Virus record (IMG/VR): IMGVR_UViG_3300026522_000061 | Source: a virus | Length of the DNA stretch: 39,858 nt | Reading direction: 5' to 3' (one strand) | In this document: positions 6,365-39,858 of the stretch, piece after piece | Layout of the letters: each line of letters starts with the position of its first letter | How positions within the stretch are numbered: the first letter of the stretch is position 1 | Made by a program: the position numbers and the translations under genes | Notes under the pieces: model-generated | What the model saw: the letters and a program-made list of their open reading frames with translations, nothing else | The model's database searches: none | Told to the model about the DNA's origin: nothing

Positions 6365-6369
6365 ACTGC

Positions 6370-8985: not shown

Positions 8986-8992
8986 ATCGTTG

Positions 8993-9268
8993 TTATTGTA
9001 GGCTGTCGCCCAGTTTCTTTACTAATTCTTCCATACGCCTGCGCTGCTGCTCCGGGGTGTATTCCTTTGCTTTCTTCGCGGCGGCTGCCTTTTTCTTATC
9101 CCACGGAAACGGCAGCAGTTTTTCCGGGGTTATCTTCTTGCCCTTGGCCAAATGCGGCTGTATGGTTATGGATGCCAGCAGGCGCATACGTTCCCAGTTG
9201 TTCTTATAATCGAAATCGCGCTGCTCTGCATAGGCTTTATAGACGGCTGCAAACTCTTGAAAATCCAT
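8993..9268 (-). CDS. Tail assembly chaperone T-segment, probably expressed as a G-T fusion by -1 frameshift; this frame is open up to 9349
   Basis: I translated the frame from 9349 to 9266 and found no stop (KLEPKGIYDLLGIALGCIRLSYDDFCKM...). It lies between the chaperone G ORF and the tape measure. Confidence 0.7.
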   Translation of the reverse strand: MDFQEFAAVYKAYAEQRDFDYKNNWERMRLLASITIQPHLAKGKKITPEKLLPFPWDKKKAAAAKKAKEYTPEQQRRRMEELVKKLGDSLQ

Positions 9269-9342
9269 CTTGCAGAAATCGTCGTAACTTAGCCGTATGC
9301 AGCCCAGCGCGATACCCAGTAAATCGTAGATGCCTTTAGGCT

Positions 9343-9645
9343 CTAACTTTTTTTTTCTTCACCCTCCGCAGGTGCAGCGGATGCCTGCACAGCGTTTGCC
9401 CACGCGGTCATATCCTCCGGGGAAAGCGCGTCGGCAAAATCCATCAGCGACATATCAAACGGCACCTTGTCGGCTGCTGAGGCGGACGCGACGCAGCAGT
9501 ACAGATACGCGCAAAGGTCGCTAAAACTGTTGCTGGTAATCTCCGTTACCTCCTTGCCCGTCTCCTTTTTGAAACGCAGCATAGCACCCATAGTAGGGCG
9601 GCAGGGGTAAACCTTGCCGTTTATGGTTACTTCTATCTTAGCCAT
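9343..9645 (-). CDS. Tail assembly chaperone (gpG-like)
   Basis: 100-aa ORF between the major tail protein and the tape measure, ending in the slippery A-run. Confidence 0.8.
   Translation of the reverse strand: MAKIEVTINGKVYPCRPTMGAMLRFKKETGKEVTEITSNSFSDLCAYLYCCVASASAADKVPFDMSLMDFADALSPEDMTAWANAVQASAAPAEGEEKKS
9349..9355 (-). promoter_or_regulatory. Candidate -1 programmed frameshift slippery heptamer A_AAA_AAA, within an A9 run at 9348-9356
   Basis: The mRNA reads GAA GAA AAA AAA AGT TAG at the end of the G ORF. A -1 shift enters the open T frame. Confidence 0.65.
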
Positions 9646-9651
9646 ACGCCT

Positions 9652-10119
9652 TTACTCTCCGGGGTTCTCAGTAATCGCGCTTTCGTCCAGTACGGTAGGC
9701 TCGCCGTCATTTTCCAGCGAAATGCTGTACGTAGCATCGTCCTGCGCGGGGTCGGTACGCTCCAGCGACGCGATAACGCAGTTACCAACCAAATACGGCT
9801 TTTCGCTGCTCTCGCGCTCCATACATTTCACCTCTACGGATTTGCCGGCTTTCCAAAGTGCCAAAAGCTCCTTGTAGCCGTTTTCGGTCTCGTCGTAGAA
9901 AACCAAACCCTCGGCACTGATAGAATACGAAAGCCCTACCACGCCCTTTTTCTTCCAAAGGCCGCCCGAAATGCCCGCAGTGGCTACCGGCTTAACCGCG
10001 CGCTCCTTGGTTTCGCTGTTAAACGTGGTGGTGTGTGTGGTACAGCTTCCCACCGCTTTGCCGCCTACATAAAGCAGCATATCGCTACCATTGCAGTAGC
10101 CCGTCTTTGTTCCTGCCAT
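9652..10119 (-). CDS. Major tail protein
   Basis: 155-aa ORF in the canonical position upstream of the chaperones. Confidence 0.75.
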   Translation of the reverse strand: MAGTKTGYCNGSDMLLYVGGKAVGSCTTHTTTFNSETKERAVKPVATAGISGGLWKKKGVVGLSYSISAEGLVFYDETENGYKELLALWKAGKSVEVKCMERESSEKPYLVGNCVIASLERTDPAQDDATYSISLENDGEPTVLDESAITENPGE

Positions 10120-13546: not shown

Positions 13547-14798
13547 CTTCGTTAGGTTCTTTTGGTTCGTTATTCGGTTCCTGCGCAGGTTGTGCCGGTT
13601 TGCCTGCCTCCGTTATACCCTTTAGGTTGGCAGATACCAGTACGGTATCGCCGCCCTCGATAGGCGGTTTGTTTTCCTCTCTGCGCCACTCGTTCACGGT
13701 GTAGATACCTGCCGCTATGGTCTGCGCTTGGTACTTAATCCTGCTTTCCAAATCGCAGGCATAAAGCCCGCGGCGGTCAAACTGGAATTTACGTTTGCAG
13801 CACAGCGTAGGTGCTACCAGTTTTCTGTGCAGCTCGTTTTCAATCTTGCGCAGGATAGGGTTTAACGTGTTGCTGAGGAAAGCCACGTTAGCCATTTCAG
13901 CCGATTTGTAGTTATTGCTTGTATCATCAAACACAAAAGACGGATGCACGCCAAAGAAACGGCAAATCTCGCGCACGCTAAATTTGCGGGTTTCCAAAAA
14001 CTGCATATCCGTGCTGCTTAACGAAATCGGGCTAAACTGCACCTGCCCCGGCAGCGATACTATGCGCTCACCGTTTCTAAACCTGCCGTCCAAATCGGTA
14101 GCTGTCTTTTCCAGCTCCTTGTCTTGGTACTCGCCAAATCCTCTAACGCTGGTGTCGTTGCTAACGATACCGCGGACGTTGCCGCCGTTGGCAAATCGGT
14201 TTAGCGTCTCTTTGTCGCCCGTGCTGGTAATATCCAGCGTGGTACGGGCAAAGGAAAGCGTAGATAGGCCGTTTTTGCCATCCTTGGTGTAGTTCTTGAT
14301 ATGGATAATTTCGCTTTCGTCCAGCGTCATACTAACGCCCGCCTTAACGTCCGTAATCGTGTACTTGTTATTGTACGTGTCGTGCGATACGGCGGTAGGG
14401 CTTACTAATTTCAGCTCGGCTATATCCATAGCCACAAAATCGTACACCGGCACTATATAGGCGTTACCGTTGAGTAACAGATACTGCACCACCTGCCGCC
14501 AAAAGTCCACGGCAGACATATAGCTGCACGGCTGCACGTTCAAAACGTAGTGCAGTCGGCTGGCTCTATCCTCCACAAAAATATCTCCTTTCAGCCGCAT
14601 ATACTGGATAGGCAGGTTTGCCACACTATCGGCCAAAAGATTAACGCAGCGGTAAACCGTGGCTATCTGTAGCTCGGCACCGGCAGACGTTAGCAGGCTA
14701 ACCGCCCCAGTCCTCGCGGGGCTGGCGGTCTCCTGCGTCGCGGTGCTATCATCTGTACCGCGCTTGAATATGCTACGTATGTTATCGAAAAATCCCAT
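13533..14798 (-). CDS. Portal protein (HK97 family-like)
   Basis: 421 aa. Called on size and synteny with the protease and capsid genes. Confidence 0.85.
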   Translation of the reverse strand: MGFFDNIRSIFKRGTDDSTATQETASPARTGAVSLLTSAGAELQIATVYRCVNLLADSVANLPIQYMRLKGDIFVEDRASRLHYVLNVQPCSYMSAVDFWRQVVQYLLLNGNAYIVPVYDFVAMDIAELKLVSPTAVSHDTYNNKYTITDVKAGVSMTLDESEIIHIKNYTKDGKNGLSTLSFARTTLDITSTGDKETLNRFANGGNVRGIVSNDTSVRGFGEYQDKELEKTATDLDGRFRNGERIVSLPGQVQFSPISLSSTDMQFLETRKFSVREICRFFGVHPSFVFDDTSNNYKSAEMANVAFLSNTLNPILRKIENELHRKLVAPTLCCKRKFQFDRRGLYACDLESRIKYQAQTIAAGIYTVNEWRREENKPPIEGGDTVLVSANLKGITEAGKPAQPAQEPNNEPKEPNEDGQE

Positions 14799-20745: not shown

Positions 20746-23198
20746 TCGTCCTCATTTTCATCGTTCGGTTTACGTCTAAATCCTTTCTGCACGCCATATA
20801 GCTGCTGCACGTGGCGCGTGCTACTGATACGTTCCCAGTCGGGCAAACCGTCTATTATCTTGCATATCCGGCGGGCCAAATACTTGTAGTCCTTATCGGT
20901 CATATCCTTGCCCATCTGCTCGCAGATAAATTCAGCGGCGCACACCCTTTCGCGCAGTTCCGTGCCATCGGCTTGCAGCGGGTCGGGGTCTCGCAGGTAA
21001 CTGCGGCGTGCCTGCACGTCCATAGTGTCCCACGTCACCGGCAGGCGCGTATCTAAATACTTGGTCAGCATCGCCACTATAGGGTCGTCGCTATCGTCGT
21101 TAAACTCCTGCTGCCTCTGCTTCGCCTGCGCCTCCAGTTCGTCGCTGAGGTAAAGCCGTTCGCCCTGCTTGTAGTAGTGGACGGCCTCAGCCCAAAGCTG
21201 GTCACGGTCGCGCGTCAGTGCTTCGTGCCAGTTGTGGTATTTTCGCAGGGCCGCATTTACCGGGATAACCCAAAAGCGGCGGTTTCCGTTGTCACCCTTT
21301 AGAAAAAGTGCCTCGTTTGTCGTGCCGCAAAATACGCACTGGCGCGGATGCTCCGATACCCTGCGCCCGTAGGCAGCGCGGTATATATCCACCTGCTTAG
21401 ATAGGTAGGCTTTAACCTGCTCCACGTCGCTGCGCTTGATACTGGAAAGTTCGCCCAGCTCAATTAACCACGCCCTGCGCAGCTGCTCCATACCCTCTTT
21501 GCCCTCTGTGGTCGTAATGCTGTCGTTAAACCAGCTGCCGCCCATAATGGCCAGCAGGGTAGATTTGCCGATACCCTCTGCGCCCGACATAATTAGGCAG
21601 TAATCGTATTTGCAGCCGGGCTGGAATACTCGCGCCACGGCAGCGGTAAAGTGCTTGCGGCACATAGCGCGGTTCAGCGCGTTGTCCTCAGCCCCCATAT
21701 AGTCTATAACTATCTTGTCCAGCCTTGGCACGCCGTCCCATCGCAGCCCGTTGAGGTAGTCGCGGATAGGGTGGTAGCTGTGGCGCGTCAGCACTGCGGT
21801 TAGTGCGTCGCTTATCTTGTCCTTGCCCGTTATATCGTAGTTCCGTTCCAGCCATACGCGCAGGTTTGCGTCGTCGCTGTCAGTCCACTGGCCCGGCTGC
21901 GGTTTCCACGGCAGCGGCTCTTTTGCCGCGTCCATACCAGTAAACTGGTCGTGGACGATACGCCCAGCCAGTGCGGGGTCGTTCTCCAGTATCAGTATAA
22001 TGTTAGCGATACTGCAAAGCAGTTTGCCGCTTTTGGTGTACTCCAGTTCGGCTTTCCATTCGTCGCTGTAATCTTCGGGTACTTCCACGCCTCCGAAATC
22101 GTCCGCTACCTCTTTCTGCTTGTCTCTCGCCATCACCAGTTTAACCGCCTTGTCGGATGCCGCAAACTCCTGCATAGCCGCGTAACTCGGCCTGCGCGTT
22201 ACGTCCTGCGCCCTGCTTCCCTCATCCTGCGCACCGTATAGGTGTATGCGGCAAAGGTCGAAAGCGTTGCACAGCTGGCGGCTGGCGGGGTCTGTTTCGT
22301 GGTGGCTATAGGCAAATTTGCCCTCATAGCATACCAAACCGCCCGCCACGCTTCCCAGCTTGTACGTGTATCTGTCGGGCTGCGCCGTCGGCTCGTACTT
22401 GTCGCTGAGGAACTTTTCTATTACTTCCTCTATAGTGTATGCGCGGCAGAAAGCACCGATAATGCCCGGCTTCTCCAGCGGGTCGCCCGCTTTCTTCATT
22501 TCGTGCGCTATAACGTCGCCCTCCCTGCTGGATATAGGCCACGCGCTTACGTCCCTATAGTCCACGTACTGCGCCAAAACCGCGTCCACGTCGCAGGCTG
22601 GCCCGTCTTGGTACTCAAATACGTAGTCCGCATCCTTGGACGTGCTCGGCCAGTAGAATAGGCGCGGCAGCTCGTAGGTGGTATCGTCGAAAAGGTCTAT
22701 GCCTATTTCGGCTGCTATCTTACGGCAAAGCGGCTCGTACTCAGCTGGCGATACTTGGCGCGATAGCGGAAATACCAGCCTATAGCGCGGTGTTTTCGCG
22801 CTGTGCTTGTGCGTACTGTACAGCATTGCCGCAAAGTCGAAAGCCAGCGTAAAATCGTCCCATACGTTCAGCGTGCCGTAGTCTATATCCAGCGTGGCCA
22901 CGCTTCGGTACATTACGTTAGTGTTCTTTCTGATACCTTGCGATAGATAGCCACCGACAAAGCCGCCTACGTCCTTGACGTTGCTTTGTTCCTCGCGTGT
23001 CATACGTGCGTACTCCGCTGCGGTCTCGCCCGTGCGCTTGGTCTCGCTGCATCGCTGTAACAGCTCGCTCCATTGCCAGTGCCGGTTGCGCCACTTCTTA
23101 GATACGCGGCTGTGCGCGGTGGCTAAATCTATCGTAAAGTCGTTCTTAACTTTTATATCCATACAGCAGGGTACTGAAATAGTCTTTGTTACGCTCAT
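20739..23198 (-). CDS. Primase-polymerase / VirE-family P-loop replicative helicase
   Basis: 819 aa with a Walker A motif GAEGIGKST in the C-terminal half. The N-terminal domain is prim-pol-like. The true start may be MDIKV at 23162. Confidence 0.8.
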   Translation of the reverse strand: MSVTKTISVPCCMDIKVKNDFTIDLATAHSRVSKKWRNRHWQWSELLQRCSETKRTGETAAEYARMTREEQSNVKDVGGFVGGYLSQGIRKNTNVMYRSVATLDIDYGTLNVWDDFTLAFDFAAMLYSTHKHSAKTPRYRLVFPLSRQVSPAEYEPLCRKIAAEIGIDLFDDTTYELPRLFYWPSTSKDADYVFEYQDGPACDVDAVLAQYVDYRDVSAWPISSREGDVIAHEMKKAGDPLEKPGIIGAFCRAYTIEEVIEKFLSDKYEPTAQPDRYTYKLGSVAGGLVCYEGKFAYSHHETDPASRQLCNAFDLCRIHLYGAQDEGSRAQDVTRRPSYAAMQEFAASDKAVKLVMARDKQKEVADDFGGVEVPEDYSDEWKAELEYTKSGKLLCSIANIILILENDPALAGRIVHDQFTGMDAAKEPLPWKPQPGQWTDSDDANLRVWLERNYDITGKDKISDALTAVLTRHSYHPIRDYLNGLRWDGVPRLDKIVIDYMGAEDNALNRAMCRKHFTAAVARVFQPGCKYDYCLIMSGAEGIGKSTLLAIMGGSWFNDSITTTEGKEGMEQLRRAWLIELGELSSIKRSDVEQVKAYLSKQVDIYRAAYGRRVSEHPRQCVFCGTTNEALFLKGDNGNRRFWVIPVNAALRKYHNWHEALTRDRDQLWAEAVHYYKQGERLYLSDELEAQAKQRQQEFNDDSDDPIVAMLTKYLDTRLPVTWDTMDVQARRSYLRDPDPLQADGTELRERVCAAEFICEQMGKDMTDKDYKYLARRICKIIDGLPDWERISSTRHVQQLYGVQKGFRRKPNDENEDDL

Positions 23199-23352
23199 CG
23201 CAGTAAATGGTTACTAATCGGATGCCCTTAGCCATCCTTTTAACCTCCATTTCATACGGTGTTACCTCATCATCCAAACGGTCGTATAGTTCCCGCAGTT
23301 TGGCCGCTTCTATCTCGGCCTGCACGCTATTGTTAAATGCCTTATCTTTCAT
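23146..23352 (-). CDS. Hypothetical protein (68 aa)
   Basis: ORF from the track. It overlaps the annotated primase start, with less overlap if the primase starts at 23162. Confidence 0.5.
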   Translation of the reverse strand: MKDKAFNNSVQAEIEAAKLRELYDRLDDEVTPYEMEVKRMAKGIRLVTIYCDERNKDYFSTLLYGYKS

Positions 23353-23355
23353 ATA

Positions 23356-23493
23356 TCAGTCCTCCGGGATATAGTCTATACAAGTTGCTTGGTTATCATC
23401 TACCGGGTTATCAGTTAGCCCGCACTCGCTGCCTAAATAGGTGTGTACGCATAATGCGCAGTTACCGCAGCATCTTGTTTTATCATCGTTCAT
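23356..23493 (-). CDS. Small Cys-rich protein (45 aa: MNDDKTRCCGNCALCVHTYLGSECG...), below the ORF-track cutoff
   Basis: Hand-translated. It fills the gap between the methyltransferase stop and the next gene exactly. Confidence 0.4.
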   Translation of the reverse strand: MNDDKTRCCGNCALCVHTYLGSECGLTDNPVDDNQATCIDYIPED

Positions 23494-23494
23494 A

Positions 23495-24127
23495 TTAAAA
23501 TAATTTGGGTCGCAACCTCTCAGCCTCTACAAAATTTCTAAATCGCTGTTCCTCCATAGCGAAATAATCGCCGTCTATTTCGCACCCTACGAAAGAAAGC
23601 CCCATTTTGTATGCCGCTATTCTGCTGCTGCCACTTCCTAAATGCGTATCTAATATCTTATCACCGTCTTTGGCAAAAAGCCCGTAAATCCATTCGTATA
23701 GCTCCACGGGCTTTTGCGTAGGATGCCATTTCTTTTCCCTCGTAGTAGGGTTTTTGTCGAATTTCTTAGCGCCGATACTAAAAGAGGTATATGCCATTTC
23801 AAACTGTGAAAATGAAAGTTTGTCGCTAAACTTTTTATCCCATAACAGCCAGCATCTACTATCCCACGGCATACGACTGACAAAATAGTTTGCGCCCCAT
23901 ATAATTTGATTTTTTGATACCCTACGCAGCTCGTTAAAATACTCGGTGGGGGGGGGTGCTGCATCCCAGTAGGCTTTTTTGCGTCCGCTGTATGCCATAC
24001 CTTTTCGCCTGCCTATACTTTCGTTAATTTTAATTCCGTATGGTGGGTCGCAGACAGCTATATCAAAATACCCGTCCGGCACGTTCCGCATATACTCCAT
24101 ACAGTCTATATTATACGCCTCATTCAT
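23495..24127 (-). CDS. DNA methyltransferase (N6-adenine or N4-cytosine, beta-class motif order)
   Basis: DPPYG motif near the N-terminus and an AdoMet-binding DTHLGSGSS motif near the C-terminus. Confidence 0.85.
   Translation of the reverse strand: MNEAYNIDCMEYMRNVPDGYFDIAVCDPPYGIKINESIGRRKGMAYSGRKKAYWDAAPPPTEYFNELRRVSKNQIIWGANYFVSRMPWDSRCWLLWDKKFSDKLSFSQFEMAYTSFSIGAKKFDKNPTTREKKWHPTQKPVELYEWIYGLFAKDGDKILDTHLGSGSSRIAAYKMGLSFVGCEIDGDYFAMEEQRFRNFVEAERLRPKLF
23948..23956 (-). repeat. Homopolymer G9 (C9 on the coding strand) inside the methyltransferase ORF, encoding PPP
   Basis: Counted directly: ggt ggggggggg tgc. Confidence 0.9.
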
Positions 24128-24147
24128 TTTTAATTCTGATTTAATGC

Positions 24148-24165
24148 GCCCGGCTTGCGCCGGGC
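24148..24165 (-). promoter_or_regulatory. Hairpin 3' of VR2: GCCCGGC, TTGC loop, GCCGGGC
   Basis: Perfect 7-bp stem, 31 nt beyond the VR2 boundary. It is positionally homologous to the hairpin 3' of VR1. Confidence 0.7.
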
Positions 24166-24186
24166 TTAAAGATTAAAGACTAACTA

Positions 24187-24858
24187 TTAACAGTGTAAAA
24201 ATGCTGAAACGGGGCGAACTCTGCCCGTGTCCGGCGCCTTAGGGCTGCCGTACGCGTAGCCGTAGTTGAGGTCCAAAAACCACGCGTAGGTCGCGCTGTA
24301 CTCGGTAGAACTCCAGTACCAGCCTGCTAACTCTTGGCCACCTACGAAACGCATAGCGGCGTTAATGGCCTTGCGGTTGAGGCAGATTAAATACAGCTCG
24401 GCCAGTGTCGGGATATACTCGCCATCTTTCAGCTGGATAGCAGGATTAAGCCCCACGGCTTGCAGGTGCTCGGTGTTCTTCTTACCTTGCCAGTCCTGCA
24501 CAGCGTCCATATAGCTGTCGATATAGTGGCCTTTGCCATCGTCCTTTTTGCTGATCAGCGTAATTTCGTCCTCGCTTACGTCGTGCAGGGATATGGCTAC
24601 GCTATGGCTACCTTGGACGATACCGATATAGGCAGTATCGTTTGTGGTTTCGGTATCTTCCCCATCATAGCGCACTGCGTTGCCTTTGGTGTCGATTAGG
24701 TAAACGCCATCTGCCAGTCTGTCGCTGGCTGGTTCCTGCTTCTTAGCCTCATCACCACCGCGCACGAAATCCCAGCATTTCTGTGCGGTCTCTACGTTGT
24801 ACCCGGTTTCTTTTAGCAGGGTCATACGCACCTGCATATTGTTGCTAATAGCTTCCAT
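24187..24858 (-). CDS. DGR target protein 2 (DUF1566 / C-type-lectin-fold-like C-terminal domain carrying VR2)
   Basis: The C-terminus reads WYWSSTEYSATYAWFLDLNYGYAYGSPKAPDTGRVRPVSAFLHC. The 3' 108 nt match the TR except at template adenines. Confidence 0.9.
   Translation of the reverse strand: MEAISNNMQVRMTLLKETGYNVETAQKCWDFVRGGDEAKKQEPASDRLADGVYLIDTKGNAVRYDGEDTETTNDTAYIGIVQGSHSVAISLHDVSEDEITLISKKDDGKGHYIDSYMDAVQDWQGKKNTEHLQAVGLNPAIQLKDGEYIPTLAELYLICLNRKAINAAMRFVGGQELAGWYWSSTEYSATYAWFLDLNYGYAYGSPKAPDTGRVRPVSAFLHC
24197..24304 (-). repeat. DGR variable repeat VR2
   Basis: Aligned to TR 36306-36413. Across the hand-checked core (TR 36311-36413) there are 15 mismatches, all at TR plus-strand T, which is coding-strand A. 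Confidence 0.9.
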
Positions 24859-25189
24859 ATCTGCTGCTGTTTAGTTTGTTGATATTCTTTTTAACCTTGT
24901 CGTAGCACTCAGCATCTGCGTAGCTGTTGGCTACCTCGCCCTTGTCGCTCAAAATCTCATCGGTCAAATCTTTGCCGTAGTTGTGCATAAAGCAAAGGAA
25001 CTTTGTACCGTTGGATAACTCTACGATATAGGGGTAATCCAGCCCTACGGCAAAATCGCCCTTTTCGCATCCACTAACCCCCGCTGTGTAGTTAGGGTTA
25101 AACTCTATTACATCGGCGTTAGCAGTCCACTGCTTTTCACCATAGCGGCGTATGGCCGCGTACTTGAATTTCAAAAATTTCTTGTTCAT
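24845..25189 (-). CDS. Hypothetical protein (114 aa)
   Basis: ORF from the track, packed between the polymerase and DGR target 2. Confidence 0.6.
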   Translation of the reverse strand: MNKKFLKFKYAAIRRYGEKQWTANADVIEFNPNYTAGVSGCEKGDFAVGLDYPYIVELSNGTKFLCFMHNYGKDLTDEILSDKGEVANSYADAECYDKVKKNINKLNSSRYGSY

Positions 25190-25193
25190 ATAA

Positions 25194-27140
25194 CTAATCT
25201 TTTAGGTAGTATGGTGTAGTGTAGCCTGCGCCTTTCAGCGGCAGGTCTCGGCACCAGCTAATCTGTTTGCTAAATATGGCTTCCACGTCTGCCAGCGTTT
25301 GCCCTGCTTCCGCTTCTACCACTATCTCATCGTGGATATGGAAAACGATATTTAACCCGCTTTCCTCAGCTCTGATAATCACGTTACCCAGTACGTCACG
25401 GGCTATCGCCTGCACTACGTTCTCGGTCAGCTTACCGCCATACGTGCGTATCTTTTCCCACTTTTTGGTCGTTTGGTTCAGTCCCTCGTACTCGATTATT
25501 TCGTGGTCGCCTCTCCATCCGTCCCCGTACTCTATGCCTATAGTGGCGCGCGGGTAACAAATGGTTCTGCCGGACGGCAGGGTAATAAGCAGCATACCCC
25601 ATCTGTAGGAAACTTCTATACCTCGGTTAATCGTCACGCTTTCGCCTGTCTTGATAGCCTTTACCGCCGCTTGTTCTATGATAGTCCAAAAGCGTACTAT
25701 CTTCGGGTTAGCGTCGCGCCACTTTCGTATAATTTTCTTTTCCTCGTACTCGGTCAGCCCCATACGGCTGCCCCCCATATTCTCCAGCGCGCCTACGCCG
25801 CCGCCGTAGCCCAGTGCCAGCACCGCTATTTTGCCCTTGGCGCGCAGTTCTGCGTTTTCGCCGTGCTTCTCTACCTTGCAGTGGAACATCTGCCCGGCTG
25901 TAGCGCAGTAAATATCGCCGTCTTGCCGGAATACATCCAGCACCCAGTTTTCACCTGCCAGCCACGCGATAACGCGCGCCTCGATAGCTGAGAAATCGCA
26001 GACGTGGAAAACGCAGCCGGGCTTGGCGATAAATGCGGTACGTATCAGTTCCGAAAGTACGTGCGTAGGGTTTTCGTAGTTCAGCTCGAAATCCTCCAAA
26101 TCGCCCGCCTTGACTAACTGCCGCGCGTAGTCCAAATCGCGCAGGTGGTTTTGTGGCAGGTTCTGCACCTGCACCAGCCTGCCAGCCCATCGCCCGGTAC
26201 GCGCCGCGCCGCAGAACTGCAAAAGTCCGTGTATTCGGCCATCATTGCAGACGCATTGCAGCATAGCTGCGTATTTCTTGTTTGAGGTCTTGCCCATTTC
26301 GCGGCGTATGGCTAAAACGCGCTGCGCTTTCGGCCAGTATCTAAACTGCTTGTCCATATCGTCCAAATCCTTTTTGTTGAGGCTGGCGATACTGAAACCA
26401 GTAGTTTTGTGAAGGTACTCTTTTATCTGCGCCGGGCTGTTGGGGTTTTCCATCCCGGTTAGCTGCTGCGCCTCGGCAAACAGCTGCGCTTTATACTCAT
26501 CATCGAAACGGGCGGCGTTCTCGGCCAGCTGGCGGTCTAACATAACGCCACGGTCGTTAATACGCTGGTCTATGGTGTACAGCACTTCGTCAAATGCGGC
26601 AGGCTCCAGCCTGCGCACCTTGGCTAATATCTGCTGCTCTACCTCCACGTCCCGGATATTGTACGCCTTGAATGTTTCCCACTTGTCGGGTGCATCTGCT
26701 GGCAGGTGTCGTTTGCCTCGGTTCGGTACGCTGAAATATCGTATCAGTGCTGCGCCCTCTTTCATCTTACCGTCCGAAAGCCTAAGCACCTCACCACACT
26801 GCCCCAGCGATAGCGGCAAACCCATACGGGCGGCTCGTACCATCGTGCATTTCCACTGGCTTGCATCCATCAGCGGCCACCCGTAATACTTGGATATGCA
26901 AACGCGCTCAAATGCTGCGTTAAACGCGGTCTTGATAACGGCAGGATCTCGCAGGGCTTCGTATATCTCCGCTGGCAGCTGCTCGCCGCTTGCAAAGTCG
27001 CAGCACACTACCGGGCCGCCATCCACACTATACGCAAACAGCAGTATAGTAAAGTCCTTGGCTTCCACGTAGCGATATACGCCGCATCTTGACAGGTCGT
27101 GGCTGCTGTAGGTTTCAATATCTATCCCTATCTCTCGCAT
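25194..27140 (-). CDS. Family A DNA polymerase with an N-terminal 3'-5' exonuclease domain
   Basis: 648 aa. N-terminal IDIETYS, motif B-like KGKIAVLALGYGGG and motif C HDEIVVE. Confidence 0.9.
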   Translation of the reverse strand: MREIGIDIETYSSHDLSRCGVYRYVEAKDFTILLFAYSVDGGPVVCCDFASGEQLPAEIYEALRDPAVIKTAFNAAFERVCISKYYGWPLMDASQWKCTMVRAARMGLPLSLGQCGEVLRLSDGKMKEGAALIRYFSVPNRGKRHLPADAPDKWETFKAYNIRDVEVEQQILAKVRRLEPAAFDEVLYTIDQRINDRGVMLDRQLAENAARFDDEYKAQLFAEAQQLTGMENPNSPAQIKEYLHKTTGFSIASLNKKDLDDMDKQFRYWPKAQRVLAIRREMGKTSNKKYAAMLQCVCNDGRIHGLLQFCGAARTGRWAGRLVQVQNLPQNHLRDLDYARQLVKAGDLEDFELNYENPTHVLSELIRTAFIAKPGCVFHVCDFSAIEARVIAWLAGENWVLDVFRQDGDIYCATAGQMFHCKVEKHGENAELRAKGKIAVLALGYGGGVGALENMGGSRMGLTEYEEKKIIRKWRDANPKIVRFWTIIEQAAVKAIKTGESVTINRGIEVSYRWGMLLITLPSGRTICYPRATIGIEYGDGWRGDHEIIEYEGLNQTTKKWEKIRTYGGKLTENVVQAIARDVLGNVIIRAEESGLNIVFHIHDEIVVEAEAGQTLADVEAIFSKQISWCRDLPLKGAGYTTPYYLKD

Positions 27141-31026: not shown

Positions 31027-31061
31027 TTTGTTGGTTGGCTCGGAAAAACTGCCTACCTTTG
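31027..31061 (+). promoter_or_regulatory. Candidate rightward promoter: TTTG (31027-31030), N23 spacer, TAccTTTG (31054-31061)
   Basis: Third exact TACCTTTG box. The spacer is longer than the 19-21 nt consensus. Confidence 0.35.
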
Positions 31062-31143: not shown

Positions 31144-31174
31144 CAAAGGTAGAGGTTTTTCGGTAATCTCCAAA
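31144..31174 (-). promoter_or_regulatory. Leftward early promoter (Bacteroidota type) on the minus strand: TTTG (31174-31171), N19 spacer, TAccTTTG (31151-31144)
   Basis: The plus strand reads CAAAggTA, 19 nt, CAAA. The spacer contains a TTTCGG half-site. Confidence 0.55.
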
Positions 31175-35084: not shown

Positions 35085-36272
35085 TCAGTAGTCGCCATCT
35101 CTTATACGCTGTAGGGTTCTTGTTCTTAACCTGTATTTCTTCTTTACGGCCACTACGTCGTAGTGTCCTTTAATGTACACCCACTTAAATACCCGGCTGT
35201 CCATCCGTTGCAAAACCTTGCGCCGCGTGTTATACTCATTGCAGTGGCGAAAGCATCCCAAATAGCTGTTAATGCTATCCACTGCGTGCAGAACTTCGGG
35301 CACAGTCTCTGCCCGGTTCAGTCTGCGCACGGCCATTATAGCGTTTGTTATCGTATGGTTTGCGGTATATACGCGGTCTTTCTTTACAACACTGCCAGTA
35401 AACTGCACGCCCCTGCTGTAGTGCTGCAAATAGAACTTGTGCGGATGCAGCGTTAGCCCGTAAAGCTGTAGCAGGGTGCGGATATACGGCACTGCTGCCA
35501 GCAGGCGCGCTTTGTCCTTATCCACTATGTAGAAATCATCCACATACCTGCCGACATACTGAAAGCCCAAAGACTTGATTAAATACCAGTCCAGCACGTT
35601 TAGCAGGAAATTGGCGAAAAGCTGGCTAAATAGGTTGCCTATGGCTACGCCCAAACCCTCGCCGTTTGTAAATAGGGATTTGTTGGGCGGCAGATAGTCC
35701 CAGTAGCTTGCAGGGCTGTGGCGTTCACAGTTCTTTTCGGGTTCGTGCAGTACCACTGTGCGGCAAAGGAAACGCAGCGTATCTTTGTCTGCCTCGTTGT
35801 GGTAGTTCTCCACTACAAAAGCGTCCACCATATCGGCCAGCATCTTTTTGTTTATGCTCATAAAGAAACCCTGCAAATCCAGTTTCATTATATAGCAGTC
35901 CTGCGTATAGTTCACGCTGCACTGGCGCACGTCCTCGCGCAGCATATTGATGCCGTACAGCTGCCCTTTGCCTTTTCTACAGTTGAAAGTGCGCGGGCTA
36001 AATATCTGCTCAAACAGCGGCTCCAGTCGTAGGGCTATCCAGTGGTGTACTATTCTATCCTCAAAAGTAGCCGCGAATACTTCCCGATACCTCGGACGCG
36101 TAACGACAAAGCACATAGATTTACCGGGGCGGTAGGTACGTGCGTTAATGCGGTCTCGCAGGGCTATTAACTTGCCCTCGTAGTCCATTTCGTACACTAT
36201 CGCGCTGGCTGTTTTCCGCTTCCTTTTACGGCAGTCGTAATACGCTTCTAATAATCCCTCGGTCGTAATCAT
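35085..36272 (-). CDS. DGR reverse transcriptase
   Basis: 395 aa with an RYVDDF catalytic motif and the DGR-specific IGNLFSQ ([LIV]GxxxSQ) motif. It lies immediately 3' of the TR. Confidence 0.92.
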   Translation of the reverse strand: MITTEGLLEAYYDCRKRKRKTASAIVYEMDYEGKLIALRDRINARTYRPGKSMCFVVTRPRYREVFAATFEDRIVHHWIALRLEPLFEQIFSPRTFNCRKGKGQLYGINMLREDVRQCSVNYTQDCYIMKLDLQGFFMSINKKMLADMVDAFVVENYHNEADKDTLRFLCRTVVLHEPEKNCERHSPASYWDYLPPNKSLFTNGEGLGVAIGNLFSQLFANFLLNVLDWYLIKSLGFQYVGRYVDDFYIVDKDKARLLAAVPYIRTLLQLYGLTLHPHKFYLQHYSRGVQFTGSVVKKDRVYTANHTITNAIMAVRRLNRAETVPEVLHAVDSINSYLGCFRHCNEYNTRRKVLQRMDSRVFKWVYIKGHYDVVAVKKKYRLRTRTLQRIRDGDY

Positions 36273-36305
36273 ATCGTATAGCTATCGCGCGTTTTGGTTA
36301 TCTGC

Positions 36306-36413
36306 AAAAGTGCTGAAACGGGGCGAACTCTGTTCGTGTTCGTCGCCTTAGTGTTGTTGTTCGCGTTGCCGTTGTTGAGGTTCAAATTCCACGCGTTGGT
36401 CGCGCTGTACTCG
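36306..36413 (-). repeat. DGR template repeat (TR), adenine-rich on the coding strand with 11 AAY codons
   Basis: Pairs with VR1 and VR2. It reads ...EYSATNAWNLNLNNGNANNNTKATNTNRVRPVSA. Weak homology with an indel continues to about 36420. Confidence 0.9.
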
Positions 36414-36541
36414 CAACTCCGTGCCGCCCTTGCCTTGGGCTGGATGCCCTCAGCCATAACTATAAATGATAGTGCGCGGCCCATTTTTACACAGATAACT
36501 ATTTGCACGCTTGATTAGTCGTAACCTTTCAATTCCGGCAG

Positions 36542-36925
36542 TTAATCAGGTCTGCTGTCTAACTTGATTAACGAATTTTTCCACGCGGTCGCCTGCTTGC
36601 CTATAGCGTCCATCAGTTCGATAATATCCGCGTGGCTGCTTCTGCCTAAAATCCATTTCCGTTCGCCCGCTATGCGCATCAGCGTCTTCAAAACCTCAAA
36701 CTCCGACTGGAAATTAACCAAATGCTGTATGCGCGTCGCGCGGTCTCTATTTATGTATGCTGCCGTTATCTCGGATATTAGGTTTACCGAAATTTCGTGC
36801 ATCTTGTTACCTATGGTAAACTTGTATTCACGCGGAAAGTTTGGCGTAACGTCTAACACTTTGTCGATTAGCTTACGGCAGTCTAAATAGATTTGCTGGT
36901 TAGATACCAGTTTGGATTTGTTCAT
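36542..36925 (-). CDS. avd: DGR accessory variability determinant (four-helix-bundle protein)
   Basis: 127-aa basic helical protein between the target gene and the TR, the canonical Avd position. It contains an FPREYKF..GNKM motif. Confidence 0.8.
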   Translation of the reverse strand: MNKSKLVSNQQIYLDCRKLIDKVLDVTPNFPREYKFTIGNKMHEISVNLISEITAAYINRDRATRIQHLVNFQSEFEVLKTLMRIAGERKWILGRSSHADIIELMDAIGKQATAWKNSLIKLDSRPD

Positions 36926-36954: not shown

Positions 36955-36974
36955 GGTACGGCTTTCGCCGTACC
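36955..36974 (-). promoter_or_regulatory. Hairpin 3' of VR1: GGTACGGC, TTTC loop, GCCGTACC
   Basis: Perfect 8-bp stem, 35 nt beyond the VR1 boundary. The flanking sequence cTTAAAG..TAAAG..TAACTATTAAC is shared with the VR2 locus. Confidence 0.7.
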
Positions 36975-37002: not shown

Positions 37003-37764
37003 CTAATATAAAAATGCTGAAACGGGGCGAACTCTGAACGTGGACGTCGCCTTAGGGTAGGTGCTCGCGGAGCCGTAGCCGAGGGGCAAATACCACGCGT
37101 AGGTCGCGCTGAACTCGGTAGAACTCCAGTACCACGTTTCTGCCAGCTGTGTTGCTCCCTCTATCATCGATAATGCGTAATTGATTTTACGCATATTCGC
37201 GTAGATGCAAAACAGCTCACCCAGCGACGGTAGCCACCATCGGCCTGCGGTCAGTCCTTCGCCGTTGGCATTAACGCGGCTGTAGGCTGCGCAGAAACCC
37301 GGTGCGTAGGATGCCGTATTACATTCCGCGTGCGTAATCTGCGCTGCGGTGTTGGCCTTTCCTGCCCAGTCGTTCATCACCGTAATGCGGTCTGAGGTGG
37401 TAACGCCGCCACCGCTAACGGCTGCGCTGCTCCACGTTAATGCGGTCTCGGTTGGCGATACTACCAGTATCTTGCCGCCCTCCACAACTACCACGCCCTC
37501 GGCTATCTCGCCGCTGTTTTGGTAGCTCGTCCACTTGTCGGGTTTCACCATAAGCGGGTAATTATCGCTGTTTCTGTGAAACATAATAAATACTCCGTCG
37601 TTGATGCTATTAAGGTTGATACCAGCCAGCAAAGCCTCTTTTAAGTTTGCCAGCGTTACTTTAGTCACGTTACCGCTGCCGTCGGTTAGCGGTATGTACT
37701 GCGACGCGTTCACGGTGCTAACCGTCGTTACGTCTTTAAGTGTCTTTGTTTTCTTCGTTGCCAT
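37003..37764 (-). CDS. DGR target protein 1 (tail-fibre-associated, DUF1566 / C-type-lectin-fold-like C-terminus carrying VR1)
   Basis: The C-terminus reads WYWSSTEFSATYAWYLPLGYGSASTYPKATSTFRVRPVSAFLY. Located directly downstream of the tail-fibre genes. Confidence 0.9.
   Translation of the reverse strand: MATKKTKTLKDVTTVSTVNASQYIPLTDGSGNVTKVTLANLKEALLAGINLNSINDGVFIMFHRNSDNYPLMVKPDKWTSYQNSGEIAEGVVVVEGGKILVVSPTETALTWSSAAVSGGGVTTSDRITVMNDWAGKANTAAQITHAECNTASYAPGFCAAYSRVNANGEGLTAGRWWLPSLGELFCIYANMRKINYALSMIEGATQLAETWYWSSTEFSATYAWYLPLGYGSASTYPKATSTFRVRPVSAFLY
37010..37117 (-). repeat. DGR variable repeat VR1
   Basis: Aligned to TR 36306-36413. Across the hand-checked core (TR 36311-36413) there are 18 mismatches, all at TR coding-strand adenines. 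Confidence 0.9.
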
Positions 37765-37792: not shown

Positions 37793-39172
37793 TTATTCGC
37801 CCGTATATAGGCCCTCTATAGCGTACCACGCGCCGTTAATGCTCTTAAATTTACAGACGCAATTAGGACACATATATACAGTTGTGCCCCCGTAGTCTAT
37901 GTATTTGGCTTGGTAATTTTCCACTACCGCGCCATAAGAGCTATCCCCTTCTATTGCATACGAGTTAGCTTTAACGTATAGGCTGTCGCTGCCGTTACTT
38001 TCGACAAAAGTCATTTTGTCAGGGTTCCATCCGCTATTAAGTAGCTTAGTAAAAATCTGTATCTCTAATCCATCGTAAAGGCCCGCTTTAGGTAGTGTCA
38101 CATATCGGTGATTAGTCGGTTCGTCCACCAAAAAACTGCAACACGGCTCGACTTGTGGATTTATTATGTACTCTCTATTTGTTGCTGTAGTAATTGTTTT
38201 AGTCGGGCTGTAGTAAAGCTGCGCTTTTACGATGCCCTCCAGCGTGCTGTTACCTTTTACAGTAATGTTGTTAAACGTGCCGCTATTGCATATTACGTTA
38301 CCGTCTTTAGCTCTGAACACTACGTTACCGTTAGCGTCTTTCATATCTATGGCTTCCACGCCCAAATTTTTAACCAGCGCGTAGGTAGCCAGCAGGATTT
38401 TAGTAGCTACCAGCTCGATTTTGTCGCCCAGCTGCCAATAGCCGTTATTTATGGCTGTAGTGCTTCCGGGGTAATTGCTGGCCGTCTTGGTGTGGCTCTT
38501 TACACAGCTGTAGTAGTTATCACCATATATAACCACGTCCTGCCATTTCTCGCCCGCGCCCCCAGCTTGGAAAGCGTAGCCCGTGGCGCAGTCACTCCAC
38601 GCCTGCGGGCCGCGCAGTACCGCGCCCCGCTCTCCCTTTTCGCCGGTGTCGCCCTTCGTTCCCACCATCTCGGAGGCCGCGGGTATCCACGCCGTAGCGG
38701 CGGCGTTAGCGCCCATGGTCACCACGGCCCATTTGACGTAAGTGCCCGAGGCGTAGCTTGACGCCCCGCTCGTCTCATGGAAGAACGTGAATTGCAGGAG
38801 CTGTGCGGCGCTGAGCCCTGACTTGGCCTTGTACGTCCACTGATAGCTCTCTATGACCTCCGTCTTGCTCTCCAGCGTCGCTACCATCTGCGTACCGCTG
38901 TCCTGGAATACCTTGATAACCGTGTCCGCACTGTCCACCTTGTAGCAGACTGTCAGCGTACAGAGCGTGCCGTCAGCGGGCTTGCTGCCGTCCCACGCGT
39001 ATTGCCCTATAAGGTAGGCCGAGGACGAGAGCTTCTTGTTCGCGCCTTTCAGGAGATTGGGCTGATAGTTGTCTCCCTTTTCTCCCTTGGCACCAGCGGC
39101 ACCCGCCTCGCCCGTTGCTCCCTTTTCGCCCTTGCGGATAAACTTAACTACTTGTGTCCTTGATACGCCCAT
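37793..39172 (-). CDS. Tail fibre protein with collagen-like G-X-Y stretches
   Basis: 459 aa containing KGEKGATGEAGAAGAKGEKGD and GTKGDTGEKGERG. Confidence 0.8.
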   Translation of the reverse strand: MGVSRTQVVKFIRKGEKGATGEAGAAGAKGEKGDNYQPNLLKGANKKLSSSAYLIGQYAWDGSKPADGTLCTLTVCYKVDSADTVIKVFQDSGTQMVATLESKTEVIESYQWTYKAKSGLSAAQLLQFTFFHETSGASSYASGTYVKWAVVTMGANAAATAWIPAASEMVGTKGDTGEKGERGAVLRGPQAWSDCATGYAFQAGGAGEKWQDVVIYGDNYYSCVKSHTKTASNYPGSTTAINNGYWQLGDKIELVATKILLATYALVKNLGVEAIDMKDANGNVVFRAKDGNVICNSGTFNNITVKGNSTLEGIVKAQLYYSPTKTITTATNREYIINPQVEPCCSFLVDEPTNHRYVTLPKAGLYDGLEIQIFTKLLNSGWNPDKMTFVESNGSDSLYVKANSYAIEGDSSYGAVVENYQAKYIDYGGTTVYMCPNCVCKFKSINGAWYAIEGLYTGE

Positions 39173-39175
39173 AGC

Positions 39176-39858
39176 CTACAGTACGCTGGTAATGGTTACT
39201 GATACGTCGCCGCCCGCCTGCACACAGTGCGCACGGGTAACGGTTTGGCTGGTTTTCGGTGTGGTTCTGTCGCTGTTGAGGTAAACGCCTGCCGCATCTT
39301 TCAGCACGAAATAAAACTGCGTGTCTAACGCCTTGGTGCTGGTTCCGCGCGTCACCACTACCGGGGTGTACGTTACTTGGCCGTTGCCCGTGGTGTCCTC
39401 GGTTATCGCCTCATCTTCGGGCGACGGGTGCGGGTCTATATCGTAGGGGTCGCTGGTGTCCATCACGCTCTGTATATCGCTGCCTATCTCGGCACCGGCA
39501 CGGTAAACGTGTACGCGGTACTCGCCATAGGTGTTAATATCATCGGCCCTAACCGTCAGCGTCTGCGCGGTAGCCCCCGTAATGGTTTCCCAGCCGGTCG
39601 CGCCCATCTTCTCCCATACGTAGGTTAAATCCTTGGTCAGCGCGTTACCGCTTTGGTAGGCCATCGCTTTCAGTATGCAGCTGCCGTCCTTGGTGGTAAT
39701 AACAAAGTTCTTGGTATCGCCTGCCGCGATTGTAACGCGGTAGCTGCTGCCCGTAGCCTGCTGGATAGGTATAGTATAGCTGGCTTGTATCGTGTCGCTC
39801 TGCGTGCCATACGATACGGTGGCTACCATCTTTATAACCGCGGGTGCATAGCCAGCCA
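39176..39858 (-). CDS. 3' part of the wrapped Ig-like tail-associated protein gene (joins 1-488)
   Basis: The track ORF 39176-39829 begins at an internal Met. The frame stays open to the window edge and through the repeat into 128-488. Confidence 0.75.
   Translation of the reverse strand, partial: AGYAPAVIKMVATVSYGTQSDTIQASYTIPIQQATGSSYRVTIAAGDTKNFVITTKDGSCILKAMAYQSGNALTKDLTYVWEKMGATGWETITGATAQTLTVRADDINTYGEYRVHVYRAGAEIGSDIQSVMDTSDPYDIDPHPSPEDEAITEDTTGNGQVTYTPVVVTRGTSTKALDTQFYFVLKDAAGVYLNSDRTTPKTSQTVTRAHCVQAGGDVSVTITSVL
39732..39858. repeat. Terminal direct repeat, copy B (identical to 1-127)
   Basis: Same as copy A. Confidence 0.95.

Follow-up and report, generated by a model that had tools for sequence, protein, structure and literature searches.

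The stretch of DNA analysed here, referred to as the window, is the IMG/VR virus record IMGVR_UViG_3300026522_000061, 39,858 nt long. It carries a diversity-generating retroelement (DGR) and, well away from it, a minus-strand open reading frame (ORF) of 223 aa at 24187-24858, called T2 below, whose 3' end is a copy of the repeat of that retroelement. A repeat scan finds a family of three copies, at 24196-24321, 36305-36430 and 37009-37134. The middle copy is the template repeat (TR), being adenine-rich and located between the genes for the accessory variability determinant (Avd) and the reverse transcriptase (RT). The outer copies hold the variable repeats (VRs), VR2 in T2 and VR1 in target gene 1. 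Read down the minus strand from 37764 to 35085, the cassette has the order target 1 with VR1, Avd, TR and RT. The distance from the TR to VR2, start to start, is 12,109 nt, and about 10.8 kb separate VR2 from the 3' end of the RT gene. The features of the two loci are as follows.

24148-24165, minus strand: GC hairpin after VR2, 7-bp stem GCCCGGC/GCCGGGC, loop GCAA on the sense strand, 21 nt past the T2 stop codon
24166-24186, minus strand: spacer before the VR2 hairpin, GTTAATAGTTA..CTTTA.CTTTAAG, also conserved after VR1
24197-24223, minus strand: invariant GC-rich 3' segment resembling an initiation of mutagenic homing (IMH) element, common to TR, VR1 and VR2 (sequence comparison)
24197-24304, minus strand: VR2, the last 108 nt of T2, with its adenine-mutagenised part at 24224-24288
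35085-36272, minus strand: DGR reverse transcriptase, 395 aa, intact (Pfam RVT_1, E = 9e-16)
36306-36413, minus strand: TR, adenine-rich (35 A in 108 nt)
36542-36925, minus strand: Avd, 127 aa (Pfam bAvd, E = 2.8e-35)
36955-36974, minus strand: hairpin after VR1, 8-bp stem GGTACGGC/GCCGTACC, loop GAAA (sequence and fold)
37003-37764, minus strand: target gene 1, 253 aa, DUF1566 (Pfam Lcl_C, E = 1.4e-9)
37010-37117, minus strand: VR1, with 18 adenine-site mismatches to the TR and a C>T change shared with VR2

In an ungapped minus-strand alignment, TR 36413..36306 and VR2 24304..24197 are identical at 92 of 108 positions, and 15 of the 16 mismatches fall on TR adenines (VR2 positions 24288, 24279, 24278, 24273, 24264, 24258, 24252, 24249, 24248, 24245, 24243, 24234, 24231, 24225 and 24224). 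With 35 adenines among the 108 TR positions, 15 or more of 16 mismatches would fall on A by chance with P = 4.7e-8. The lone remaining mismatch pairs TR C36310 with T24201 at a site 3' of all mutated adenines; VR1 also carries T there (37014). The initial annotation of this DNA had counted 15 mismatches, all of them at template adenines, which is accurate for the mutagenised part but not for the full span, where the C36310/T24201 pair is a non-adenine difference. Its companion claim, that VR1 and VR2 differ from each other only at TR adenines, stands: there are 18 differences and every one is at a TR adenine. Read in the T2 frame, the TR contains 11 AAC codons and one AAT, placing its adenines in AAY codons of the target. 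VR2 encodes aa 185-221 of 223, at the 3' end of the ORF and inside a domain predicted to have the C-type-lectin fold. The cognate machinery is in the same genome, with the RT and the accessory protein recognised by Pfam (RVT_1, bAvd) and the TR adjoining them. The RT translation shows IGNLFSQ and YVDD motifs by eye, and the protein is 98% identical to the RT of Bacteroides phage Bacuni_F2 and of IMG/VR relatives.

The two VRs share not only the invariant GC-rich segment but also the sequence beyond it. The TR, which continues into the RT start codon, lacks both the spacer and the hairpin found after each VR. As folded DNA, the VR2 hairpin has a centroid energy of -10.6 kcal/mol (z = -2.8). The homologues of T2 at 80 IMG/VR loci show the same arrangement, a perfect GC hairpin (at least 7 bp, 4-nt loop) standing 17-34 nt past the stop codon in 71 of them; the loop is GAAA in 61 of these 71, and the stems vary by compensatory changes. 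As shown by Guo et al. 2011 (PMC3240598), homing of the DGR of Bordetella phage BPP-1 requires a downstream hairpin/cruciform in which the stem structure counts and the stem sequence does not, and such hairpins, with 7-10 bp GC stems and 4-nt GRNA loops, generally stand 4-34 bp downstream of the VRs of phage DGRs. As judged from sequence, VR2 has both its GC-rich 3' segment and its downstream hairpin, and together they form a predicted recognition element. The hairpin was also considered as an intrinsic terminator of T2; no T-run follows it, and this interpretation was therefore rejected.

Comparison with related phages provides the evidence that VR2 is being rewritten. The TR is identical in the window and in the Bacteroides phages Bacuni_F1, F2 and F4, and against this single template the remote VR exists as three alleles, one in the window, one common to F1 and F4, and one in F2. 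The T2 proteins of F1 and F2 differ at 11 residues, all in aa 188-213, while those of F1 and F4 are identical. An additional Bacuni-like contig in IMG/VR combines this TR with yet another remote allele, which mismatches it at 16 positions, 15 of which are adenines. A protein search with T2 gives 1590 matches, of which the best 120 are nearly all singleton clusters at 90% identity and are 87-95% identical to T2. In an alignment of 109 near-identical metagenomic homologues drawn from these best 120 of 1590 matches, mean column entropy is 1.80 bits for VR codons with TR adenines, 0.15 for VR codons without them and 0.13 for the rest of the protein; the AAY positions hold 11-15 residue types, and 106 of the 109 homologues have distinct C-termini. 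Diversification thus appears as ongoing both across phages (the three alleles) and across homologues (1.80 versus 0.15 bits). That VR1 and VR2 are diversified independently, as had been proposed for this DNA, agrees with their different substitution patterns and with the variation of VR2 alleles against an identical TR.

Remote VRs also follow their templates in more distant lineages. The TR of the lineage represented by contig L010 has eight non-adenine differences from the window TR, and the remote VR of L011, a contig bearing the gene for DNA polymerase A (PolA), has all eight of these changes and otherwise differs from the L010 TR by 14 mismatches, 13 at A. In a third lineage (PolA ~73% and terminase TerL ~52% identical), 14 contigs each contain a TR, a near VR and a remote VR with adenine-biased differences.

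The window has a terminal direct repeat of 127 nt (1-127 = 39732-39858, 100% identical in the repeat scan), which makes it a circularly closed contig of ~39.7 kb; the closed genome measures ~39,731 bp, the repeat being assembly overlap. The minus strand carries nearly all long ORFs. By megablast the 20-30 kb segment is ~94.6% identical, over 94% of its length, to Bacuni_F1, F2 and F4. The immediate neighbours of T2 are these.

23495-24127, minus strand: N6/N4 methyltransferase, 210 aa (Pfam N6_N4_Mtase)
24845-25189, minus strand: 114-aa ORF between the polymerase gene and T2 (ORF list)
25194-27140, minus strand: DNA polymerase A (Pfam DNA_pol_A)

T2 had been described as lying between the DNA polymerase and the methyltransferase, and the two Pfam assignments (25194-27140 and 23495-24127) place it exactly there, its start being overlapped by 14 nt by the end of the 114-aa ORF. 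Along the minus strand it is preceded by a DUF2800-like ORF (a name taken from the F1 annotation of the homologous ORF), an Enc34-type single-stranded-DNA-binding protein, a 152-aa ORF, PolA and the 114-aa ORF, and it is followed by the N6/N4 methyltransferase, a VapE-type primase, a VRR-NUC protein, a helicase and the terminase (Pfam, PHROGs).

This placement is a property of the family. In about 74 of the 80 IMG/VR loci that encode relatives of T2 (39-92% identity), the gene stands directly after PolA and before the primase on the same strand, and TerL is 52-99% identical across the 80 loci. The order PolA-(small ORF)-T2 is kept in these ~74 contigs, and the genes between T2 and the primase vary. 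T2-family genes also occur at five loci of Mu-like transposable phages (L046, L048-L050 and L053). The one annotated here, L046 (IMGVR_UViG_3300004628_000274), encodes an S24 repressor, a transposase (phrog_310), a MuB-like protein (phrog_296) and an ATPase, and its T2-family gene at 6091-6771 follows the transposition genes in the early region; the other four resemble this layout by the sizes and order of their ORFs. In these four the VR-like end is identical and no hairpin is present downstream, so the T2-family copies of L048-L050 and L053 may not be diversified.

The T2 protein consists of two parts. Pfam gives an Lcl_C match at E = 2.5e-5, below the gathering score, and aa 80-222 align with aa 93-253 of target 1 at 38% identity (E = 9e-27). 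The initial annotation held the N-terminal part of T2 to be unrelated to that of target 1; this is so for the first ~80 residues, but beyond them the two proteins align and both match Lcl_C/DUF1566. An exhaustive HMMER search yields 812 representatives at E <= 0.001, and the full-length family comprises dozens of proteins of 210-235 aa with ~30-58% identity. Their alignment has an N-terminal motif, Q.LR..LL ... A..AY.FI.G, then a variable linker and the DUF1566 domain, which ends in WYWSSTE.SAT.AW.L.L..G...KA...RVRPVSAF. The AlphaFold2 model built on a diverse family alignment (A4) has a predicted local distance difference test score (pLDDT) of 93.6; a model from a shallow alignment of near-identical homologues and target 1 (pLDDT 35) was discarded. 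The accepted model predicts N-terminal helices at aa 6-17 and 22-32, a less confident linker and a DUF1566/C-type-lectin-fold domain ending in VR2. Foldseek matches in the PDB are led by BACOVA_04982 (4EPS) and the C-terminal domain of Legionella Lcl (8Q4E), each at E = 4e-4, followed by weak C-type-lectin matches. The viral models matched by Foldseek include a protein named tail fiber, in its C-terminal part (TM 0.67), a virion structural protein from a Pseudomonas phage, and DUF1566 proteins from crAss-like phages. Across 36 family members scanned, the N-terminus matches no Pfam family at E <= 0.1, and a hidden Markov model built on the first 35 aa has no further match among the proteins of the window. 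Inspection of the T2 translation by eye reveals no signal peptide or lipobox.

In a DGR, the RT-Avd complex makes adenine-mutagenised complementary DNA (cDNA) from the TR RNA, and this cDNA replaces those VRs that are flagged by 3' recognition elements. Applied to the window, RT-Avd would copy the TR RNA and misincorporate opposite adenines, and the mutagenised cDNA, being diffusible, could replace any repeat in which the invariant 3' segment matches and a GC hairpin lies downstream. As T2 has its own copy of these 3' elements, it would be rewritten in trans, independently of VR1. The analogy for such trans rewriting is BPP-1, where homing takes place with avd-TR-brt provided in trans (Guo et al. 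2011, PMC3240598). In the T2 protein, the twelve AAY codons present in the TR correspond to aa 191-212 of the C-type-lectin-fold domain, so that the predicted binding surface would be the part randomised. We consider that VR2 is a working, non-adjacent target of the single DGR of this phage, with a probability of about 0.93, and the evidence supports T2 as a second DGR target that resides in the replication module and is diversified independently of VR1.

Several points weigh against this assignment. The loop of the VR2 hairpin, GCAA, deviates from the GRNA consensus (Guo et al. 2011) at position 2, and the Lcl_C match of T2, at 25 bits, is below the Pfam gathering threshold of 34.9. The pairing of the L010 TR with the L011 remote VR is based on a common metagenome and on sequence match, not on a single contig. 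A few differences in relatives are not at adenines, such as one G>T in the remote VR of F2. The variation of VR2 is a comparison between phages and homologues, and T2 is known here from its sequence and a structural model.

What T2 does is a separate question, on which two views have comparable standing. T2 may be a virion protein whose gene happens to lie outside the structural module, serving as an accessory adhesin or as a second receptor-binding protein and docking to the tail or capsid by its N-terminal helices; this is possible, though we would place it short of an even chance. The DUF1566 domains of T2 and target 1 are paralogous, the gene for target 1 being located among tail genes, and the tail fiber and virion structural proteins are among the best viral structural matches of T2. 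Set against these likenesses, T2 has no recognisable virion-attachment domain, and its N-terminal module is without a match in Pfam or in the other proteins of the phage. T2 also stays linked to PolA while TerL identity spans 52%-99%, and its family recurs in the early region of Mu-like phages. The published isolates add to the difficulty. According to Hedzet, Rupnik & Accetto (2021, PMC8143477), F1 and F2 infect the same host although 15 single-nucleotide polymorphisms (SNPs) separate them in the 'secondary' VR, and F4, with 18 SNPs relative to F1 in the 'primary' VR, infects another host. Sequence comparison identifies the 'secondary' VR as the remote VR. F1 and F4 have the same VR2 on different hosts.

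This failure of VR2 differences to follow host range counts for the other view, that T2 is a non-structural early protein, made with the replication genes and acting as an intracellular hypervariable binder, for example as a counter-defence or host-takeover factor. We regard this proposal as tentative. It draws on the place directly after PolA, kept across deep divergence with a start that often abuts or overlaps the upstream gene, on the corresponding place right after transposase and MuB-like genes in Mu-like phages, whose backbone is unrelated, and on the lack of a recognisable attachment domain and, in the translation, of a signal peptide or lipobox. It also draws on the promoter motifs of the window. 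The strict Bacteroides motif TTTG-N-TAnnTTTG occurs four times against 0.97 expected, as consensus matches only, and the sole copy aimed into the replication block is that at 31174-31144 on the minus strand; the window scan found no strict motif near T2. T2 is probably co-transcribed with PolA, and gene order suggests that it is expressed with the early genes. Gene order is, however, weak evidence of timing, since one strand carries almost all genes of this phage. No phage DGR target is known to act inside the cell, T2 has no known ligand, and its fold is the same as that of surface adhesins. We lean towards T2 as a soluble accessory binding protein and not the primary receptor-binding protein. 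The fuller proposal, a non-virion, DGR-diversified early intracellular binder that travels with the replication module (PolA-type here, transposition-type in Mu-like phages), is rather unlikely as it stands. A hypervariable counter-defence or host-takeover factor is one role that such a protein could have, and T2 would then be the first phage DGR target to act inside the infected cell instead of in host recognition.

That VR2 is a decayed relic, or a recent unexpressed duplication of the target 1 3' end that is no longer diversified, is very improbable and was rejected. A decayed target had been expected to be invariant across relatives. VR2 is different in F1/F4, F2, the window and the IMG/VR contig and is hypervariable among the 109 homologues; because it varies among relatives that have an identical TR, it does not behave as a decayed target. 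The variation is confined to TR-adenine codons and leaves the non-VR part conserved (0.13 bits), the full-length family extends down to about 30% identity, remote VRs track lineage-specific TR changes, and the cis elements are intact. Chance or compositional similarity between TR and VR2 is practically out of the question, with 92 of 108 positions identical, the adenine bias at the P value given above and the same relation in dozens of related contigs, and it was likewise rejected.

The arrangement of one adjacent and one distant target is already known in phages of the same genus. The initial annotation implied that an RT/TR pair serving a cis and a distant trans target was new; Hedzet et al. 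2021 (PMC8143477) describe it for the ~95% identical Bacuni phages, with one target next to the RT and one distant, both being DUF1566 proteins with VRs in the last 35 codons and adenine-specific changes. Compared with Bacuni_F1, F2 and F4 (MT635598, MT806186 and MT806185), the window has ~94.6% nucleotide identity over the replication module, an identical TR and the same gene order of PolA, small ORF, DUF1566 target, methylase region and primase, and it differs in having its own VR1 and VR2 alleles. The passages of that report found by term search do not comment on the position in the replication module, on hairpins or on wider synteny.

Similar pairs of targets are found elsewhere. Wu et al. 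2018 (PMC5758913) describe many phage-associated DGRs in which an adjacent target is accompanied by a non-adjacent one within 50 kb. T2 is like the DUF1566 'category d'/CLec2 targets of that survey, where two VRs of the same phage genome, separated by less than 50 kb, are served by one RT/TR, and like them it is short, essentially a DUF1566 domain with a C-terminal VR; the survey assigns no functional module to such targets. The DGR of Faecalibacterium Toutatisvirus phages has one VR in a DGR hotspot and a second target in the core genome, 17.5 kb from the TR (bioRxiv 10.1101/2024.10.15.618418), but its targets carry DUF6273, not DUF1566, and the hosts and phage backbones differ. T2 resembles the target of BPP-1 (mtd/VR) in that mutagenesis is directed at adenines, the C-terminal VR is part of a C-type-lectin fold, the 3' segment is invariant and a GC hairpin with a 4-nt loop lies downstream (PMC3240598). 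BPP-1 has a single adjacent target, the tail-fibre tip, whereas the second target of the window is ~12 kb away and its loop is GCAA. Remote targets could not be detected in the metagenome survey of Roux et al. 2021 (PMC8144416).

As another genome for a published case, the window alone changes little. What the literature searched does not cover is the fixed place of T2 beside the polymerase gene throughout its family, and it likewise yielded nothing on the role of the T2 gene or the reason for its placement beside replication genes, and nothing relevant on virion proteomics of DUF1566 phage proteins or on later work with the Bacuni phages. A hypervariable lectin-fold protein of ~220 aa, with a constant place next to DNA polymerase in a large clade of human-gut phages and its own homing signals in each copy, makes the T2 family a defined and common test case for the job of second DGR targets in phages, and its synteny frames a testable question about DGR targets outside the tail. 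Cultured phages exist for this purpose, F2 with an intact RT and F1 and F4 with an RT deletion of 19 aa.

The RT of F1 (L002 34024-35154) and F4 (L004 18437-19567) lacks the 19 aa LFEQIFSPRTFNCRKGKGQ, which are present in the window, where the protein is full length at 395 aa, and in F2; the alignment of IMG/VR relatives with the window RT extends over all 395 aa. Since the segment is found in the window, in F2 and in these full-length proteins, the published '57-bp insertion in F2' is more likely to be a deletion in F1 and F4. Its loss takes out a conserved-looking CRKGKG stretch and might impair the RT of these two phages.

Other observations concern the cassette and its repeats. A 79-aa ORF at 36269-36508 (minus strand) spans the TR. 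The F1 annotation lists the homologous ORF as a 'DUF1566 domain protein' gene, but the ORF is more probably just the TR, a copy of the target 3' end, than a real gene. Just upstream of target 1, a 459-aa ORF at 37793-39172 (minus strand) opens with collagen-like G-X-Y repeats (GEKGATGEAGAAGAKGEKGD) and has a weak PHROG match to a collagen-like minor tail protein, a neighbour that fits a putative role of target 1 as a tail-fibre component. In L012 (IMGVR_UViG_7000000740_000120), the near VR at 13678-13790 is partly duplicated and contains an N, which looks like an assembly artefact from VR heterogeneity in the population. In L005, L008 and L014, contigs of 40-47 kb, the target-1-like VR is identical and departs from the window TR at 15 positions, 14 being adenines; a different sequence follows it, in which no hairpin was seen, and no TR copy matching the 22-nt pattern was found in the three contigs. 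L014 has two target-1-like genes in opposite orientation.

Bacteroides phage BS-TP1 (L174, PQ571274) has a full-length T2 homologue that adjoins an RT-like gene among small hypothetical genes. The homologue, gp76, is 35% identical to T2, and gp79, two genes downstream, is annotated as 'tail protein' with reverse transcriptase as its second-rank annotation; the region 6989-9738 is probably an unannotated DGR cassette. A scan of genome contigs gave one locus in a metagenome-assembled genome, of a Porphyromonadaceae (L175, CAMEGQ010000001.1, 8001-8663), with a T2 homologue 68% identical. It has an altered 3' end, no PolA or primase nearby and no downstream hairpin, and may be a decayed or relocated copy; without PolA context and hairpin it is uninformative. 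A search with the single distant protein P0123 gave only one weak locus.

The interval between T2 and the VapE-type primase is a swap site (window 23198-24187, L001 4176-6066, L017 8657-9230). It contains the 210-aa N6/N4 methyltransferase in the window and fragments of a methyltransferase annotated as C5 type in F1, is almost empty in one IMG/VR relative and holds up to ~7 kb of other genes in more distant relatives. In L011 its ORFs resemble, by eye, a sliding clamp, a PAPS-reductase-like protein and a C5 methylase.

A scan for sigma-70 promoters and terminators is of little use for Bacteroides, and nothing was drawn from its result. Two of the strict Bacteroides motifs, at 31027-31061 (plus strand) and 31144-31174 (minus strand), stand back to back in the gap between divergent gene blocks, and this pair, beside regulator and integrase genes, is a probable early control region. 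Among the remaining genes, an 871-aa ORF at 6370-8985, whose counterpart in F1 is the tape-measure gene, contains three tandem repeats of ~177 nt at 7088-7614, the second and third copies being 80% and 68% identical to the first.

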